Assembly (NCBI GenBank): GCA_964409035.1
Contig: CAYPBQ010000002.1
Span: 83,267 to 147,266, forward strand
Direction of reading: 5' to 3'
Source of the DNA: an uncultured Candidatus Saccharibacteria bacterium
GTDB taxonomy: Bacteria > Patescibacteriota > Minisyncoccia > Phycocordibacterales > UBA12088
Length of the DNA: 64,000 bases
Shown here: in pieces, positions 6,816 through 38,506 of the stretch
How the letters are laid out: each line of letters starts with the position of its first letter
Numbering within the stretch: position 1 is the stretch's first letter
Notes under the pieces: model-generated
The model's input: only the letters and a program-made list of their open reading frames with translations
The model's database searches: none
What the model was told of the DNA's origin: nothing
Program-made: the position numbers and the translations under genes

Positions 6816-7667
6816 CTAGTTGGTGGCAAATACTGTTGTGCCGTCACTCTGAAAGGAAACCATACCCGAAAGGGTATCTTTCTTTTGTATGCCAAATGCT
6901 GCAATTTTTTCTAGCACTTCTTCGTGTGGGTGACCGTACCTATTGTCTTTCCCTGCAGATATAATTGCATAGTCTGGACTAACAAAACCTAAAAATAATT
7001 CACTTGTTGATGTGCGGGAACCGTGGTGTCCAAGCTTGAGTACATCACTTTCTAACTTCTTTCCGTCGAGCATTACTAAATATTCTTCTATTTCATCTGG
7101 TGAGTCGCCGGTAAACATAAACGCGGTTTTTCCATATCGAATTTGTAACACAAGTGATGCGGTATTTGTTTCAATATCATCAAGTTCTCTATCGGGAAAC
7201 AACACTGTGGCATGTACGCCCGCTCCCAGATCAAGACCAGAACCACGTAGCGGTGTTTTGATGGAGACCCCTCTCTCTTTAGCAATACCAATGAGTCGTT
7301 CATCAACATCAGTATCATTACCTGGAAATGACACGAGTAACATGCCAACACTGTATCGCTTCATCACCTCTATAAGTCCTCCGATGTGATCAAAATCAGG
7401 GTGCGTGGCAACAACAACGTCAATACTTCTGTCATAAAATGGCATTACTCTTGATAACTCACGCAACACCGCACCATTTGACCCACCATCTATAAGCATT
7501 TGTACGCCGGTTGGTGATTCGATAAATGATGCATCACCTTGTCCTACAGACAAAAAATGAACTTGCATGAAATGATTACTATCCTCACGTACGACATACA
7601 CCCAAATGCATATAGTCCCCATAATGAGGACCATAAGGAGTAGCGGGATATATGCGTGTTTCTTCAT
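6816..7667 (-). CDS. Membrane-anchored metallo-beta-lactamase-fold protein, ComEC C-terminal-domain type.
   Basis: HPDFDHIGG and SVGQGDASFIE motifs typical of the ComEC/Rec2 MBL domain. N-terminal transmembrane helix. Confidence 0.7.
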   Translation of the reverse strand: MKKHAYIPLLLMVLIMGTICIWVYVVREDSNHFMQVHFLSVGQGDASFIESPTGVQMLIDGGSNGAVLRELSRVMPFYDRSIDVVVATHPDFDHIGGLIEVMKRYSVGMLLVSFPGNDTDVDERLIGIAKERGVSIKTPLRGSGLDLGAGVHATVLFPDRELDDIETNTASLVLQIRYGKTAFMFTGDSPDEIEEYLVMLDGKKLESDVLKLGHHGSRTSTSELFLGFVSPDYAIISAGKDNRYGHPHEEVLEKIAAFGIQKKDTLSGMVSFQSDGTTVFATN

Positions 7668-7670
7668 GAA

Positions 7671-7901
7671 TTAAATACACCCACGCGCACTCATGCGGAT
7701 TCTGTCTAGATACGAGAGAGCATATTCACCATCTTGGGTGATGTACGGCTTAAGGAGTGTAGCGCAATACTCTTTTTTTGCACCAGCACATTCAACACAC
7801 GGCTCGCGATTGAGGTACATAAATGCACCAACCATTACTAACCCTATGGTAAGAATGAGAATTATGAATTGCATATACGTTATGGTAAGTCGCATTACCA
7901 A
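7671..7901 (-). CDS. Small Cys-containing membrane protein, hypothetical. Its stop overlaps the start of the MBL gene (ATGA).
   Basis: N-terminal transmembrane helix and a CxxC...C...C pattern. Supported by operon position only. Confidence 0.3.
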   Translation of the reverse strand: MVMRLTITYMQFIILILTIGLVMVGAFMYLNREPCVECAGAKKEYCATLLKPYITQDGEYALSYLDRIRMSARGCI

Positions 7902-31109: not shown

Positions 31110-31349
31110 GTGTCCCTTAATGATAATACCGGTATGACAATATTTAAAGCAGTTGGCCTTATAATATTTCTCTATGCGCTCACTATACTTATGCCAAGTG
31201 TGGTTGAGGCACTAGAAGAAAGCATTGTAGCAGTTCTGCATCTTATAGAATCACTTGCGGGAAACGCAGAGAATATAGAAATAACCAAACTCGGAAGCAC
31301 CGCTATTCAAATGGCACCGACAGTGATTATGACACCAGGACTACAGTAA
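31110..31349 (+). CDS. Small hydrophobic membrane protein, hypothetical.
   Basis: Two predicted transmembrane segments and an upstream promoter. Confidence 0.3.
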   Translation: MSLNDNTGMTIFKAVGLIIFLYALTILMPSVVEALEESIVAVLHLIESLAGNAENIEITKLGSTAIQMAPTVIMTPGLQ

Positions 31350-31910
31350 CGGACGAGTAACCGCTACTACAAAGCTTGTATAGTTAAACTTTAGATCTTG
31401 AATACTCTCTTCAAGTATATCAAGGTTGTATAGCTCTGCAGCACGACGTGGTGCTATTGCTGCAGTCGTATCAGGTAACGTACCGCTTGCTATATCCGCA
31501 GCTGCCTTAGCGGTGTCGGGATATTCAACCACTTCTACTCCGTGCCACTTTCTTTTTAGGTACATTCGACACTGCTTTAGTGCTTGATCATGCGAGGTGA
31601 TAGTCTTTATATGGTCTGCCGTAATACCCTTCTTTACTAAAAGATTGTGGTGTACATCAATTTCAAACATTTTTTCTATTGAAAAAACATACGCGGCCAT
31701 TGCGTGTACTGCCTCTATAACAATACCGCCATTTGAATTTTCAATTGGAAAAATTCCTTTATCAACCACTCCTGTAGTAAGAGCTTTTAACACATTGTCA
31801 GCGCTTACTAAATAGTGTATTTGGTACTCAGTAATGCCTTCACTATTTATATATGTCATCGCTGCCTCTTCGGAAAAACTTCCTTTAGCTCCTGAAATGC
31901 CTATATTCAT
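31341..31910 (-). CDS. Prephenate dehydratase catalytic-domain protein with no ACT domain. The start is the internal MNIGISGAKGSFSEEA.
   Basis: PDT-domain blocks (GxKGSFSEEA, IENSxxG, TxxxxA). About 190 aa. Confidence 0.6.
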   Translation of the reverse strand: MNIGISGAKGSFSEEAAMTYINSEGITEYQIHYLVSADNVLKALTTGVVDKGIFPIENSNGGIVIEAVHAMAAYVFSIEKMFEIDVHHNLLVKKGITADHIKTITSHDQALKQCRMYLKRKWHGVEVVEYPDTAKAAADIASGTLPDTTAAIAPRRAAELYNLDILEESIQDLKFNYTSFVVAVTRPLL

Positions 31911-32149
31911 AGCCAAACTATCGCACATACCACTCGACACTGCAACAATACAGACACATTATTTGCGTATAGCAATTTATGACAAAAATTTTTAACAATG
32001 TATCATAATTATTGTCAATAGTTACGCTATCCTCAAGCGCTCTATTGCAGTATTTTTTAGCTACGATACAATGCTCGCAGGTAAGGGTGTACGCACCCCA
32101 CACACCACACCCTCTCACTCGGGAGGTATTACTCAATAATTATTTGTTC

Positions 32150-33227: not shown

Positions 33228-33301
33228 TGGTGCGGGATACCGGAATCGAACCGGTACCTACTGCTTGGAAGGCAGTCATTCTACCACTAAACTAATCCCG
33301 C
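33228..33301 (-). tRNA. tRNA-Gly(UCC), with CCA encoded.
   Basis: Acceptor GCGGGAT/ATCCCGC, anticodon loop CUUCCAA, T-arm ACCGG-TTCGATT-CCGGT. Confidence 0.85.
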
Positions 33302-33373: not shown

Positions 33374-33463
33374 TTATTCTGACATGTCTGCGTCTTCTTC
33401 TTCGACAGCCACATCATCTGCCATATCACCGTCTGCTGCGTCATCCTCATTTTCCTCTTCCAT
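33374..33463 (-). CDS. 29-aa hyper-acidic micro-protein, MEEENEDDAADGDMADDVAVEEEDADMSE.
   Basis: Perfect Shine-Dalgarno site AGGAGG 5 nt upstream of the ATG, and a strong terminator immediately downstream. Not in the ORF track because it is shorter than 60 aa. Confidence 0.4.
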   Translation of the reverse strand: MEEENEDDAADGDMADDVAVEEEDADMSE

Positions 33464-33666
33464 AGAAACCTCCTCTGCGAACAAATGACTCAGATCAAGT
33501 AATTCTAGCGTTTGCATATATTATTCAGTTACTCAATATCGTACGATATTGTGTCTGATAAAAGGCTTCGCTTAAGAAGCGAATAAAAATAGTATACACA
33601 AAAATGCCCTATATTCAATTATCAGTGAGGCATTTCAGGTTCGCTAATAAGTGTTATACTCGGCGT

Positions 33667-34898: not shown

Positions 34899-35999
34899 TT
34901 AGCTACGCATTGCTACATTTGTAACAAATGCGTGTAGTACCTCACGATATCGTGATACATCATTAATATCTATCCACTCTTCCTCACTATGAGCACCACC
35001 ACCGCGTGGATACGTAAGAAGTGAAGGAATACCGTACCGGGCAAAGTGGCGTGCGTCTGAGGCGCCGTGTGAGCGAGTCCATCCCATCTCTATACCATAG
35101 AGATTTCGTGCAATTTCAGCAAACAACTGTGCTTCTTTATTATGTGGTGAAATGCCACACGCTGGCTCATCCATGACTATGTGATATGAAACTCTCGCAT
35201 CTTTGGCGATTATAGTCTTTATACCCTCAAGCATTGCTTCTCTATCTGCTTCATCAATTACTCGTATATCAGCATGCACCACAGCCCTCTCTGGCACCTG
35301 ATTAACGGCTTCGCCTCCCTCAATACGAGAAAAGGTTATGGTTGAATGCCAGTGATGCTCATCCTCTGTGGTAAATGAAGAAACAAATTTGGTAATAGCA
35401 TCAATGGTGGTAAGTAGTGTAGTTATCGCATTATCCCCCAACCACGGCCGTGACGCATGCGCAGAAGAACCAACTGCTTCAATTTGAATTCGGATCATTC
35501 CTTTTGCATACTCCTCAAAGCACCACTCACCTCCTCCATCAGGAATAATCGCAAAGCCTCCTCTGTATCCCTCTTTTTCAAGCAACGCGCGCACTCCATC
35601 AAACCCTCCCACCTCTTCATCCGCGGTAATCATAAGGCCAAGGTCATATTGCGATACCCGATCCCCAAGCTCGCGCAAAATATCAATGTATAGTGCGATT
35701 GCAAACTTCATATCAAATGCACCTCGCCCTTTTAATACTCCATCTTCAATCTTTGAATGAAACAGTGTAGTAGCCCCTGGCACCACATCAATATGAGCAC
35801 TGAGCCAAAGCGTTGGAGATTTGGTTGCGGTACTTGTAGCTACAAGAGATTGATGTCCGCTATAGGTATACCGATGCAGGTGTAGTGGTACGTCACGTAG
35901 TTGTTCCTCTATAAAATCATATGCCATTGCCACCTCTGTATGGTTACCCGTAACCGTGTGAAAGGTGATTAACTTTTGGAGTGTTTCTAACAAATGCAT
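34899..35999 (-). CDS. M20-family metallopeptidase (ArgE/DapE/CPG2-like).
   Basis: HIDVVPG ... GAFDMK ... ITADEEVGG metal-binding blocks. Confidence 0.75.
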   Translation of the reverse strand: MHLLETLQKLITFHTVTGNHTEVAMAYDFIEEQLRDVPLHLHRYTYSGHQSLVATSTATKSPTLWLSAHIDVVPGATTLFHSKIEDGVLKGRGAFDMKFAIALYIDILRELGDRVSQYDLGLMITADEEVGGFDGVRALLEKEGYRGGFAIIPDGGGEWCFEEYAKGMIRIQIEAVGSSAHASRPWLGDNAITTLLTTIDAITKFVSSFTTEDEHHWHSTITFSRIEGGEAVNQVPERAVVHADIRVIDEADREAMLEGIKTIIAKDARVSYHIVMDEPACGISPHNKEAQLFAEIARNLYGIEMGWTRSHGASDARHFARYGIPSLLTYPRGGGAHSEEEWIDINDVSRYREVLHAFVTNVAMRS

Positions 36000-36089
36000 A
36001 CTAGTGACTGTAAACCATTTATTACTATTTGAAAATAAAGACACCATGCCGCACGTGGCGTGGTGTCTTATTGTCCCGAAACCGATATG

Positions 36090-36356
36090 CTACTTTGGAG
36101 GCTTTAACTGAGCACTAAGGTAATCACCTATCACTTGTAATGCGGCATCTCTACCATCCACGCCTAGGATGTTTATAGCGTGGCGCACTACTGATGGGTG
36201 TTGTTCAACGAACTTAAGGAAAAGCTTTATATCCATAGGATCTCTACCGAAAAGCATGGAGAAAGTGTCTATGATTTTATATTGCTGGGGTGTAAACACA
36301 CTGACGTCCATTTTATTCTCCTCAAAGAACTTCGCGAGCTCTCGCGACCAAGTCAA
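36090..36356 (-). CDS. Hypothetical 88-aa protein.
   Basis: ORF only. Moderate codon plausibility. Confidence 0.3.
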   Translation of the reverse strand: MTWSRELAKFFEENKMDVSVFTPQQYKIIDTFSMLFGRDPMDIKLFLKFVEQHPSVVRHAINILGVDGRDAALQVIGDYLSAQLKPPK

Positions 36357-36416
36357 TTGCGACCTGGAGTATCTGTCTATCTCCTGTAGGCAGATACTCC
36401 AAAGAACAATGTATAC

Positions 36417-36444
36417 AAAAGCCCCTCTGTGGGAGGGGCTTTTG
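36417..36444. terminator. Bidirectional terminator aaaagcccctctgtgggaggggcttttg.
   Basis: Perfect 9-bp stem flanked by A4 and T4. Confidence 0.6.
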
Positions 36445-36473
36445 TTGATTTATAGTGTCTTGATTTATTTCAA

Positions 36474-36536
36474 CTAAAAGCGCCCTCCTTGTGGGAGTGT
36501 AATCAGTACGAGGGTAATCAGCGCTATTTGCTTCAT
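36474..36536 (-). CDS. Candidate leaderless 20-aa hydrophobic micro-ORF, MKQIALITLVLITLPQGGRF; alternatively a ~115-nt small RNA.
   Basis: A minus-strand promoter (TTGACA, 17 bp spacer, TACTAT) ends 7 nt before the ATG. A terminator at 36417-36444 lies downstream. Confidence 0.25.
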   Translation of the reverse strand: MKQIALITLVLITLPQGGRF

Positions 36537-36542
36537 AAAAAT

Positions 36543-36570
36543 ATAGTACCGAACCAAAAAATACTGTCAA
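36543..36570 (-). promoter_or_regulatory. Minus-strand sigma70-like promoter (TTGACA, 16 bp spacer, TACTAT).
   Basis: Hexamers seen on the reverse complement of 36543-36570. Confidence 0.4.
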
Positions 36571-36581
36571 GAATAATAGAG

Positions 36582-36607
36582 AAGACGGCGCCCAAGGGCG
36601 CCGTCTG
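36582..36607 (-). terminator. Hairpin agacggcgcccaagggcgccgtct; minus-strand terminator of the 81-aa ORF.
   Basis: 10-bp GC-rich stem. On the minus strand a T-rich tract (tctctattattctt) follows. Confidence 0.5.
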
Positions 36608-36643
36608 TTTGGGGCATCATGCCCCGTGATAATCCGCAACACT

Positions 36644-36889
36644 TCAATCTTGCGGTGGTGTAACCGTATGAACCTCAGTAAAAATTACCACACCGCTTCT
36701 TCCATCTGGATCAGCGTCTGGCGCACTCGGGTAGATAGGTACATGTATCTTTGGAAATACAGGGAGTCTACTACCGCTACTACCCCAACCGATTGGAGTG
36801 GGCTTCCCCTCTCTACTAACAGATCCGCCATGGACTGGATCTCCAGGGACAGGCGACTGAACGAAAGCAAAACCCATTTTATCCGGCAT
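36644..36889 (-). CDS. 81-aa Pro/Gly-rich small protein, MPDKMGFAFVQSPVPGDPVHGG...
   Basis: Perfect Shine-Dalgarno site AAGGAGG 5 nt before the ATG. A downstream terminator. It lies in frame within the longer ORF-track entry 36644-37024. Confidence 0.35.
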   Translation of the reverse strand: MPDKMGFAFVQSPVPGDPVHGGSVSREGKPTPIGWGSSGSRLPVFPKIHVPIYPSAPDADPDGRSGVVIFTEVHTVTPPQD

Positions 36890-36924
36890 AAAAGCCTCCT
36901 TGCGTCGCCAGGGTCGACGCACTG

Positions 36925-36990
36925 TTTCCACTATTACCCCCTGGAGTGTGATCACCACACAATAACCACACTTCAGGGGGTAATACCTGA
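36925..36990. repeat. 19-bp near-perfect inverted repeat (tattaccccctggagtgtg / cacacttcagggggtaata) forming a long hairpin in the 5' UTR of the 81-aa ORF.
   Basis: Seen directly. One mismatch. 16-nt loop. Confidence 0.8.
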
Positions 36991-37028
36991 TGAAACTTTT
37001 ACCTTTCTCCAAAGAACAATTCATCTAC

Positions 37029-37068
37029 ACGACAACCGGCCCCTGTGTGGGGCCGGTTGTGTGTTTTT
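37029..37068 (+). terminator. Plus-strand intrinsic terminator (acaaccggcccc-tgtgt-ggggccggttgt followed by GTGTTTTTG).
   Basis: 12-bp GC stem followed by a T-run. There is no plus-strand CDS upstream. Confidence 0.55.
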
Positions 37069-37210
37069 GAAGTATTTTATCTACAACATTACGCACGCAT
37101 ACGGCCCCCAATCATTGGGAGTAGCCATGAAAATGCATACGCAAATACCTGTTGCATAAAAGGATAGTAACAAAGATGCTCTATCTGTGTCAAATATTAT
37201 GTGCTTGTTG

Positions 37211-37245
37211 AAAAAAAAATTGACCCCGGCACAAGTGCCGGGGTC
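37211..37245 (-). terminator. Minus-strand intrinsic terminator (gaccccggcac-aagt-gccggggtc followed by T9).
   Basis: 11-bp stem. On the minus strand it is followed by aatttttttttc. Confidence 0.7.
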
Positions 37246-37304
37246 TGCAGGCAAAGCCTGCTCCGATGTCCTGGGGCCCGAGGGCCCCGCCGATGGTGTT
37301 GATG

Positions 37305-37466
37305 CTACGCTGACTTGCCGCCGTCGGGCCGTCGCGACTTGCCGGGGTCCTGGTGGCCGACGGTCGCCTGGCTGGTGTCGTGCCGGTGCGTCGTCGCGTT
37401 CCAGATGTCGGTCGCCTGGCTGTTGTCGAGCATCGCAAAAGAGGTAGGATGATCACTTCGATTCAT
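37305..37466 (-). CDS. 53-aa hydrophilic micro-protein encoded in a ~68% GC island, MNRSDHPTSFAMLDNSQATDIWNATTHRHDTSQATVGHQDPGKSRRPDGGKSA.
   Basis: GGAG Shine-Dalgarno site 7 nt before the ATG. An upstream TGTATAAT extended -10 element. The strong terminator at 37211-37245. It contains two ~20-bp direct repeats (CGGTCGCCTGGCTG-G/T-TGTCG). Confidence 0.3.
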   Translation of the reverse strand: MNRSDHPTSFAMLDNSQATDIWNATTHRHDTSQATVGHQDPGKSRRPDGGKSA

Positions 37467-37643
37467 CGCTTTTCTCCGTAGCTACCGGCTTTGTTGGTGG
37501 ATCTTGCGATCCGCCGGTGCTAAGTAGAAATCTACACGATTATACATAAAAGTCAATAGCTTTCCCTATTTTCTAAAAAGTCTCAAGAGAATTGCACTAC
37601 GTCGAGCCACATTCTGGAATATCAACAAAGAAATGGTTTTAGT

Positions 37644-38438
37644 TTATAGCTCTGCTCCAACTGCAAGGTTGAAACGCTCCTTAGCACTCTCGCCTTGCAC
37701 GACAATTTCAACAAACCTATGTTCATCTATACCAGAGCTACCAACAATAAGGGCGCTTTCACCCTTTGGTACTGCTGCTAGGTGCTCGTAGCAGGTAAAT
37801 GTCCCAAGTTTTGTTTGTACCTGTGAGCCTTCAGCAAAAGAAATTTCTTGAGGTAGGATGGTGGTCTTTGCATTACCAAAGTTATCTATCCACCACAACG
37901 CATGTGGTGCTGATGCAACTTCTTGTAGTGAAATAGTTTCTGCGGGTACTGTATTACCCCCCAAAAGGTAAGCAAGCACTCGTGGGGTAAAGTCAAAACT
38001 TCTAAATTGTGACCCAATAATTCTATTGCGCTCTTCTTCTGTCATAGCGCCACCTGCCACCATTGCCTCAGTAACTGTAGGAATATCCATAAGAGACACT
38101 GATTCTGTAAGGGCAAGCTTTTTAATGAGCGAGAGCGTGAATCCATCGAATGATGACACCACAAGAGTGTCTCGCACTAAAAAGTAGCAAAACGGTGTGC
38201 CGTTTTGCCACTTTTTACTACCTTTATGGCGAGGGGCCACATTTACCAAAATCGCGGTTTTATTAGAAGTATCACGATACGCATCAAGCACATCAATAAG
38301 ATTGCCCGCTGCTGAAAGATCGCCATAATCACCCACACCCACCAAAGAAACAGATGCTCCAGTAAGCGCAGCAACACGGGCAAGCTGTCTTCCTCCCGCA
38401 TTATCATCGTGACAATCATTAATGATGGTGATGTGCAT
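37644..38438 (-). CDS. DUF62-like protein, a putative SAM hydroxide adenosyltransferase (SAM hydrolase/halogenase fold).
   Basis: C-terminal GSSGIDEHRFVEIVVQGESAKERF resembles the DUF62 GSSGLLEIAV..GSAA block. The N-terminal region is only weakly similar. Confidence 0.4.
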   Translation of the reverse strand: MHITIINDCHDDNAGGRQLARVAALTGASVSLVGVGDYGDLSAAGNLIDVLDAYRDTSNKTAILVNVAPRHKGSKKWQNGTPFCYFLVRDTLVVSSFDGFTLSLIKKLALTESVSLMDIPTVTEAMVAGGAMTEEERNRIIGSQFRSFDFTPRVLAYLLGGNTVPAETISLQEVASAPHALWWIDNFGNAKTTILPQEISFAEGSQVQTKLGTFTCYEHLAAVPKGESALIVGSSGIDEHRFVEIVVQGESAKERFNLAVGAEL

Positions 38439-38506
38439 GGTATGACAATAAATATATAAAGGTTATTTGAGCATACCCCAGAGCACTAGGCGCGTCTACT
38501 CTGCGC

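Follow-up and report, generated by a model that had tools for sequence, protein, structure and literature searches.

The 64,000-nt window analysed here (contig CAYPBQ010000002.1 of assembly GCA_964409035.1, an uncultured Candidatus Saccharibacteria bacterium) carries on its minus strand a SAM_HAT/DUF62 gene (37644-38438) and an M20 peptidase gene (34899-36047), and we studied the interval between them. It is most likely a tandem array of small minus-strand transcription units: starting from DUF62, a short GC-rich open reading frame (ORF) with its own punctuation (unit 1), an aromatic-rich leader and its hairpin (module A), an 81-codon gene (ORF81), a leader rich in Ile, Leu, Val and Thr with its terminator (module B), and a 73-codon gene. 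We consider it probable, at roughly 70%, that modules A and B are transcription attenuators governed by ribosomes on leaderless leader peptides, a reading that draws on sequence, structural and comparative evidence only. A first-pass annotation had instead described three independent micro-cistrons and argued that the locus is functional.

Relatives of the window's DUF62 gene were found solely in metagenome-assembled genomes of Patescibacteria (the candidate phyla radiation, CPR). The DUF62-M20 interval is shared with L001, whose contig is identical to the window (L-numbers denote related loci), and with four related lineages (L002, with L073 and L074; L071; L063). In more distant members of the clade (L064, L065, L059, L067 and L069; DUF62 identity 59-66%), DUF62 is likewise followed by a series of small units. 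The flanking genes are under strong purifying selection (ratio of nonsynonymous to synonymous rates, dN/dS, 0.08-0.10), and their synonymous sites are nearly saturated between the window and L002 or L063 (proportion of synonymous differences, pS, 0.55-0.66), so any non-coding segment that is still similar is under constraint. Non-coding parts of the locus are up to 89-90% identical, against the 55-66% difference at these synonymous sites, and the units are conserved in all four lineages, which bears out the claim of function. Terminator-like sites are in excess in 35500-38500 (nine, against 2.5 +/- 1.7 in shuffles), and the four terminator hairpins of the first-pass annotation were all recovered (37245-37222 with a T9 run, 37060-37032, 36606-36583 and 36445-36415). 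The count of promoter-like sites in the same segment is not above chance (five, against 4.7 +/- 2.2 expected). Two of them have 10/12 matches, at 37193-37164 and 36570-36543; both are conserved in relatives, and they are the predicted promoters of modules A and B:

37164-37193 (-): module A promoter, TTGACA-18-TACTAT with TG before it, 10/12 matches; the -10 element ends 6 nt before the ATG
37089-37157 (-): module A leader ORF, predicted leaderless, 22 codons, aromatic-rich, MQQVFAYAFSWLLPMIGGRMRA
37032-37060 (-): module A putative attenuator hairpin, 12 bp (9 GC), weak U-tract on the minus strand
37007-37020 (-): ATTGTTCTTTGGAG copy 1, 3' of the module A hairpin
36543-36570 (-): module B promoter, TTGACA-16-TACTAT, 10/12 matches; the -10 element ends 6 nt before the ATG
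36474-36536 (-): module B leader ORF, predicted leaderless, 20 codons, MKQIALITLVLITLPQGGRF; segment 1 at 36525-36510, segment 2 at 36488-36475
36415-36445 (-): module B putative attenuator terminator, 13 bp, followed by UUUUGU
36397-36410 (-): ATTGTTCTTTGGAG copy 2

Module A had been overlooked, both its promoter and its 22-codon ORF, as had the ATTGTTCTTTGGAG repeats. Phe, Tyr or Trp occupies 4 of 7 codons in the window and 5-6 of 8-9 in relatives. The ORF is exactly 22 codons long in L002, L063 and L071 and keeps its aromatic content (MQQFFAYTSLWF…) at an amino-acid identity of just 36-41%; dN/dS for the peptide is about 1.1-1.3 between the window and its relatives.

Module B corresponds to the third micro-cistron of the first-pass annotation, whose 20-aa ORF, leaderless geometry and TTGACA and TACTAT hexamers stand; the spacer between the hexamers is 16 nt rather than 17, and the gap from TACTAT to the ATG is 6 nt rather than 7. 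Since the -10 element ends so close to the ATG, the mRNA would be leaderless. Ile, Leu, Val or Thr fills 10 of 11 consecutive positions of the peptide. From the promoter through the terminator and the motif that follows it, module B is 89-90% identical in every pair of lineages, with a pS of 0-0.06 in the ORF and a peptide identical in the window and L063. In L002 the three amino-acid changes fall in a loop or turn a G-C pair into G·U, and the terminator has an A-to-G change in its 5' arm together with a compensating change in its 3' arm. Scanning metagenomes for a 26-mer of module B gave no exact match.

The 14-nt repeat ATTGTTCTTTGGAG stands after both hairpins (37020-37007 and 36410-36397), and each copy is followed in turn by a long hairpin, another hairpin and a strong Shine-Dalgarno (SD) site. 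This shared repeat and layout indicate that modules A and B are paralogous cassettes. The arrangement extends beyond the window: in it and in seven related loci, the distance from the -10 hexamer to the start of the micro-ORF is 6-7 nt (9-10 nt in occasional cases), and a GC-rich hairpin of 9-25 bp follows each micro-ORF.

In both modules the leader ORF ends in sequence complementary to the 5' arm of the hairpin behind it. For module A, the predicted duplex between segment 2 (37109-37093) and the terminator arm has an energy of -20.9 kcal/mol, compared with -11.7 +/- 2.5 kcal/mol in dinucleotide shuffles, of which 1/300 was as good. When folded without a ribosome, the leader forms a long 1:2 hairpin and the hairpin at 37060-37032 forms as well; when the first 36-48 nt are masked, segment 2 pairs with the 5' arm of that hairpin (about -23 kcal/mol). 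For module B, pairing of the terminator 5' arm with the final 14 nt of the ORF (36488-36475) gives -15.0 kcal/mol, compared with -6.7 +/- 1.9 kcal/mol in shuffles (0/300 as good). In a nascent transcript ending in the terminator loop, an extended 2:3 helix is the minimum-free-energy structure (-22 kcal/mol), and with a ribosome placed at the stop codon the terminator alone forms. This complementarity argues against separate micro-cistrons here: the 20-aa ORF and its own terminator would act as one attenuator.

We propose that a sigma-70-type promoter sets the start of transcription on or beside the A of the AUG that opens a 20-22-codon ORF, in which a codon run for one amino-acid class (Phe/Tyr/Trp in module A, Ile/Leu/Val/Thr in module B) would serve as the sensor. 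A strong hairpin lies 25-30 nt downstream, and its 5' arm would be a possible pairing partner for segment 2, which comprises the final ~15 nt of the ORF. With cognate aminoacyl-tRNAs plentiful, the ribosome would reach the stop codon and mask segment 2, the terminator would form, and the transcript would stop at about 125-135 nt. With these tRNAs scarce, the ribosome would stall in the codon run and segment 2 would pair with the terminator 5' arm; once this antiterminator had formed, RNA polymerase would continue through a conserved structured 5' untranslated region (UTR) into the downstream gene. Module A would regulate ORF81, and module B the 73-aa ORF and possibly the M20 peptidase too. What the sequences show directly is the architecture of the units, its conservation, the alternative pairings and, in relatives, which leader types go with which downstream gene functions; we infer the transcription start sites, the translation of the micro-ORFs and the response to starvation.

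To see how general this design is, we used a relaxed regex-plus-fold scan of the window and 66 Patescibacteria loci (1.52 Mb), with reversed sequence as the control. The scan returned 31 units of this design, compared with 2 in the reversed controls, and all 31 lie on the strand of the DUF62 gene. The spacing from -10 to ATG is 6 or 7 nt in 24/31, and there is no SD; by codon content the units are of Ile (IIAII), Leu/Ile/Val, aromatic and Met (MMSMMM) types. The antiterminator duplex was matched or exceeded by at most 2 of 300 shuffles in 13/18 modules. The ORF 3' end also mimics the 3' arm of the terminator in the same genome: for 11/23 arms the cognate leader was the best of 23 candidates.

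The strongest argument that the design senses amino acids is the match between leader type and gene in relatives. A Met-rich leaderless micro-ORF with a terminator stands directly upstream of DUF62 in 14/51 loci (L008, L010, L020, L023, L027, L029, L030, L031, L033, L050, L051, L058, L064 and L065), compared with 0/1892 control windows. These leaders lie about 90-250 nt upstream of the DUF62 start (examples are MNRSIMMSMMMSKSAKA and MNLQARAQMMMEMMTSKNEGAFS), and further Met-rich leaders occur at L059:5865 and L069:4276. Enzymes of the DUF62 family (SAM hydroxide adenosyltransferase; SAM, S-adenosylmethionine) split SAM into adenosine and methionine. The Met leaders therefore suggest a methionine-responsive control of a SAM-to-methionine enzyme, and that DUF62 SAM hydrolases may serve methionine salvage. 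No Met leader precedes the window's own DUF62 gene, where the upstream gap is just 68 nt. A second match is found in L061 (1006-2296), where a DAHP synthase gene (PF00793, E = 8e-24) is directly preceded by a Phe-rich leaderless micro-ORF (MTNKSWNFFFSFFTDQIAV) and terminator; the arrangement resembles a textbook aromatic attenuator, here in a CPR genome. The window itself has a prephenate dehydratase-like gene at 31341-31940 (-), with the PDT domain seen in the L073 homologue; at least one step of phenylalanine synthesis is therefore retained in this organism. Upstream of this gene no Phe leader was found.

Several points weigh against attenuation. The transcription start sites are placed from promoter geometry. 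The regulated genes in the window would be orphan small proteins rather than genes of amino-acid biosynthesis or uptake. The U-tract behind the module A hairpin is poor on the minus strand (UCGUGUAGAU), and the hairpin looks like a better terminator on the plus strand. The module B sequence of the window lacks a strong 1:2 helix, and its mixture of Ile, Leu, Val and Thr is less pure than the codon runs of classical leaders. In some modules of relatives (the aromatic module of L059, L051 and L021) the antiterminator signal is weak or absent. MAFFT/RNAalifold alignments over distant modules misaligned the stems and gave weak covariation counts; we accordingly judged pairing by the energy-versus-shuffle and cognate-versus-non-cognate tests given above. 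Finally, attenuation leaves unit 1 uncovered.

The modules resemble the classical attenuators (trpL, pheL, ilvL/ivbL, leuL, thrL and hisL) in that a short leader ORF contains a run of codons for the amino acid to be sensed, an intrinsic terminator separates it from the regulated gene, and the ORF 3' end and the terminator 5' arm can make an antiterminator, in which segment 2 would be masked by a ribosome at the stop codon. They differ from them in that there is no SD and the AUG lies 6-7 nt after the -10 element, which predicts leaderless initiation; in their Patescibacteria/CPR host and the tandem placement of several specificities; and in their targets in the window, which are orphan small proteins and not biosynthetic operons. 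Rfam holds models of such leaders, and two of them scored here: Phe_leader (RF01859) reached 26.5 bits and Thr_leader (RF00506) 22 bits, against a gathering threshold of 55. Phe_leader is the only Rfam model that aligns end to end with module B (E = 0.11, below threshold). At gathering score, only tRNAs were matched in the window and in seven related loci, so that no Rfam family explains the region at that score; membership of an Rfam family was rejected, the sub-threshold matches (tfoR, Phe_leader, miRNA models) being driven by hairpins.

Leaderless sensory ORFs have a precedent in mycobacteria, where leaderless polycysteine short ORFs act on translation (Canestrari et al., bioRxiv 10.1101/834739). 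As proposed for modules A and B, the sensory short ORF of this Cys "ribulon" is the first cistron; stalling in an amino-acid-specific codon tract remodels the downstream RNA, and several loci share one sensing principle (10.1101/834739). The ilvB1 attenuator of M. tuberculosis joins an upstream ORF (uORF) rich in branched-chain amino acids to a Rho-independent terminator (PMC13236596), of which the leaderless start of modules A and B, taken with their intrinsic terminators, is also reminiscent. In the modules a strong terminator hairpin stands between leader and gene; they differ from the mycobacterial systems in the amino acids sensed and in phylum, and their targets have no known function. 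A full-text literature search returned no paper that combines leader peptide, attenuation and Patescibacteria, and none that ties DUF62 to attenuation. What is probably new relative to known attenuators is a leaderless design, in CPR, arranged as a tandem array and controlling orphan, fast-evolving small genes.

The part of the array that stands apart is unit 1:

37529-37556 (-): unit 1 promoter-like site, TTGACT-16-TAGATT; the -35 element and its flank are conserved in L002, L063, L071 and L073
37479-37522 (-): unit 1 5' stem-loop with a GCAA loop; relatives have a hairpin of other sequence at an equal position
37305-37477 (-): unit 1 SD GGAG (37477-37474) and GC-rich ORF of 53 codons (37466-37305)
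37211-37288 (-): unit 1 3' hairpins (37288-37273 and 37261-37247) and terminator (37245-37222) with T9 run

The 53-aa ORF is present as first annotated. The extended -10 element TGTATAAT then assigned to it (37546-37539) is not conserved in relatives, in which the promoter reads TTGACT-16-TATATT with TG, and we place the site at 37556-37529. Relatives keep the promoter, the position of the 5' hairpin, GGAG-N7-ATG, the context of the stop codon and, on the 3' side, two or three hairpins of which the last is a terminator, which makes unit 1 a separate conserved transcription unit as judged by comparison. Within the ORF, conservation is confined to the N-terminus (M-x-x-x-x-H-P-[PT]), and the body is hypervariable and contains repeats. 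Purifying selection on the peptide, as expected of the small genes first proposed, is not what we found: the ratio of nonsynonymous to synonymous differences (pN/pS) is 0.7-1.2, about 1. The short SD-led ORF seems to be translated in a conserved frame with its sequence free to vary. Candidate roles for unit 1 are a regulatory uORF, a small RNA and a hypervariable peptide. An attenuator of the module A/B class was rejected here, there being no convincing antiterminator and no specific codon composition.

Of the alternatives, the one that survives best concerns this unit alone, and even so we regard it as unlikely: a secreted or modified peptide, unrelated to attenuation, with a leader M-x-R-T-x-H-P-P and a variable core that changes by diversifying selection or cassette exchange. 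It would account for the comparison of L002 with L073, in which 23 differences, including two 3-nt indels, fall within about 130 nt of the ORF body and just 4 in the 4 kb that follow, with promoter, 5' hairpin, SD, ATG, stop context and 3' hairpins identical; and for ORF lengths of 53, 42, 40, 28 and 25 codons, all differing in frame. However, pN/pS is not above 1, GC-rich sequence leaves frames open by chance (unit 1 has 62-66% GC in a genome of 44%), and the contrast between L002 and L073 may partly reflect a recombination boundary, as the 3' end of DUF62 also differs by about 4%. Nor is there a signal peptide, or a modification enzyme among the neighbours, which are DUF62, the M20 peptidase, a trypsin-like protease and an ECF (extracytoplasmic function) sigma/anti-sigma pair. 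Mutagenesis of the diversity-generating-retroelement type was rejected since the substitutions are not adenine-specific.

In relatives, an extra orphan ORF of 85-107 aa (L002:7250-7507, L063:2176-2499 and L071:about 988-1220) separates unit 1 from module A and has a promoter-like site and a terminator to itself; it is wholly absent from the window.

Downstream of module A lies ORF81, the second micro-cistron of the first-pass annotation:

36890-36985 (-): ORF81 5' UTR with a 19-bp hairpin (36985-36932), a small hairpin (36920-36902) and SD AAGGAGG (36901-36895)
36644-36889 (-): ORF81, orphan Pro/Gly-rich small protein with the invariant motif F-V..P…G-W-G
36583-36625 (-): hairpin (36625-36611) and ORF81 terminator (36606-36583)

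The ORF and its SD, 5 nt before the ATG, are as first described; the 19-bp hairpin, reported as perfect, is 95% complementary (36932-36950 with 36967-36985). The 5' UTR is 90% identical in L002 and is replaced in L063 by a leader resembling that of the 73-aa ORF. Because its indels are in frame, pN/pS is 0.4-0.6 and residues F9, V10, P13, G34, W35 and G36 are invariant, with SD and start conserved, ORF81 is a genuine, fast-evolving orphan protein gene by these comparative signs, as had been claimed. A protein search gave 4 matches among 1.84 billion representatives: ORF81 itself, an L002-type homologue and two giant low-complexity proteins. Pfam, NCBIfam and PADLOC gave no match, and an AlphaFold single-sequence model is disordered (pLDDT, the model's confidence score, 55). 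In the distant L021, a Phe-rich leader precedes the ORF81 homologue. The plus-strand ORF at 36626-37159 (177 aa), first set aside as not protein-like, has no Pfam match and is not preserved in L002.

Could the small ORFs simply be independent genes, whose 53-, 22-, 81- and 20-aa products act themselves, be it as a membrane peptide or as a type I toxin with its partners, and whose hairpins are no more than terminators? ORF81 is clearly coding, the 20-aa peptide is hydrophobic and identical in the window and L063, and promoter-like and terminator-like sites accompany every unit. Against this, the hydrophobic run of the 20-aa peptide is just 11 residues, Met-rich members of the family such as MRISVNTGAEMMMRGRPERR are not hydrophobic, and the dN/dS of the 22-aa peptide is about 1.1-1.3, as given above. 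The synonymous sites of the 20-aa ORF are frozen, with amino-acid changes only where RNA pairing tolerates them, and the ORF 3' ends are complementary to the terminators. Pfam, NCBIfam and PADLOC gave no meaningful match for any of the small ORFs (the sole match, SduA, is at chance level, E = 0.023). We therefore think independent small proteins improbable as an account of the array.

The toxin-antitoxin pairing suggested in the first-pass annotation fares no better. Type I loci such as Ibs/Sib encode very short hydrophobic toxins, and module B resembles them in its ~20-aa hydrophobic peptide, its strong nucleotide conservation and its own promoter and terminator. It differs in having no antisense promoter (35500-38500 has a single plus-strand promoter-like site, at 38302, and none in the region could drive an antitoxin RNA), in a hydrophobic stretch too short to span a membrane, and in belonging to a leader family with Met- or aromatic-rich members and an ORF 3' end complementary to the terminator.

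Least probable, at rather long odds, is that the short terminated transcripts are trans-acting small RNAs, instead of or besides cis attenuators, with the ORFs incidental: unit 1, the clearest case, is GC-rich, folds better than 100/100 shuffles (z = -3.45) and has an ORF with pN/pS about 1, module B is conserved at the nucleotide level, and attenuator-derived small RNAs that act in trans are known, rnTrpL being an example (PMC6614838). But a pure small RNA has no need of a fixed start codon position, ORF length or stop position, nor of codon runs specific to an amino acid, and all of these are conserved between sequences that otherwise differ greatly. In addition, the length differences in unit 1 are all in frame with SD-N7-ATG conserved, and no Rfam family reaches threshold (tfoR scores best, with 27.3 bits where the gathering score is 70). 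Identity with a known small RNA, among them tfoR, Spot 42 and isrJ, was rejected as below gathering score, the tfoR match consisting of three generic hairpins and a U-run, and integron attC sites were rejected for the repeated hairpins upon sequence inspection, as the stems are short and perfect and have no R''/R' core.

The gene that module B would control lies just beyond the interval first annotated:

36312-36401 (-): 5' UTR of the 73-aa gene, with hairpins (36401-36365 and 36347-36332) and SD GAGGAG
36090-36311 (-): 73-aa orphan small protein with four predicted helices, downstream of module B

An AlphaFold single-sequence model of the protein is a four-helix bundle (pLDDT 72), with no fold match in the PDB (best E = 3.2). 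Genes of 73-77 aa occupy this place in the window (36090-36311, minus), L071 (2183-2416) and L002 (8470-8697). Those of L002, L073 and L063 form one similar group; those of the window and L071 are mutually closest, yet only 45% identical. The L002 group is 32-36% identical to the window or L071, though L071 and L002 are otherwise nearly identical, and this pattern points to cassette-like replacement behind a conserved leader.

Further downstream, the long ORF call of the M20 peptidase begins within a terminator hairpin (36069-36038). Its homologues begin at a Met equivalent to 35999 (MHLLETL…), which is probably the true start, and there is no obvious promoter between the hairpin and this position.

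The genomes of Patescibacteria are tiny, with few recognisable regulators and hardly any amino-acid biosynthesis, and how these bacteria sense nutrient supply is poorly known. If modules A and B are leaderless attenuators, they would provide cis-acting nutrient sensing at almost no genome cost, and would offer a first clue to the function of ORF81 (the G-W-G family) and of the 73-aa protein, as genes induced by a shortage of aromatic or branched-chain amino acids. A broader and more doubtful extension is that an auxotrophic CPR lineage uses tandem amino-acid-specific stalling sensors, aromatic and branched-chain in the window with Ile and Met versions in relatives, to tie individual shortages to diversifying, cassette-exchanged orphan small proteins and, in relatives, to SAM hydrolysis for methionine salvage. 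The orphan proteins could then be starvation-induced factors aimed at the host or at nutrient acquisition.

The small units of the array are missed or mis-called by standard gene callers: in the gene calls of L001, ORF81 appears as a 103-aa product and the 73-aa gene as a 48-aa fragment. Elsewhere in the window, a conserved and very acidic 47-aa ORF (…EEENEDDAADGDMADDVAVEEEDADMSE) with its own terminator lies at 33377-33517 (-), just upstream of a tRNA gene (33231-33301). Homologues occur in L002 and L063, and in L064 an acidic ORF resembling it (7577-7699) precedes a tRNA.

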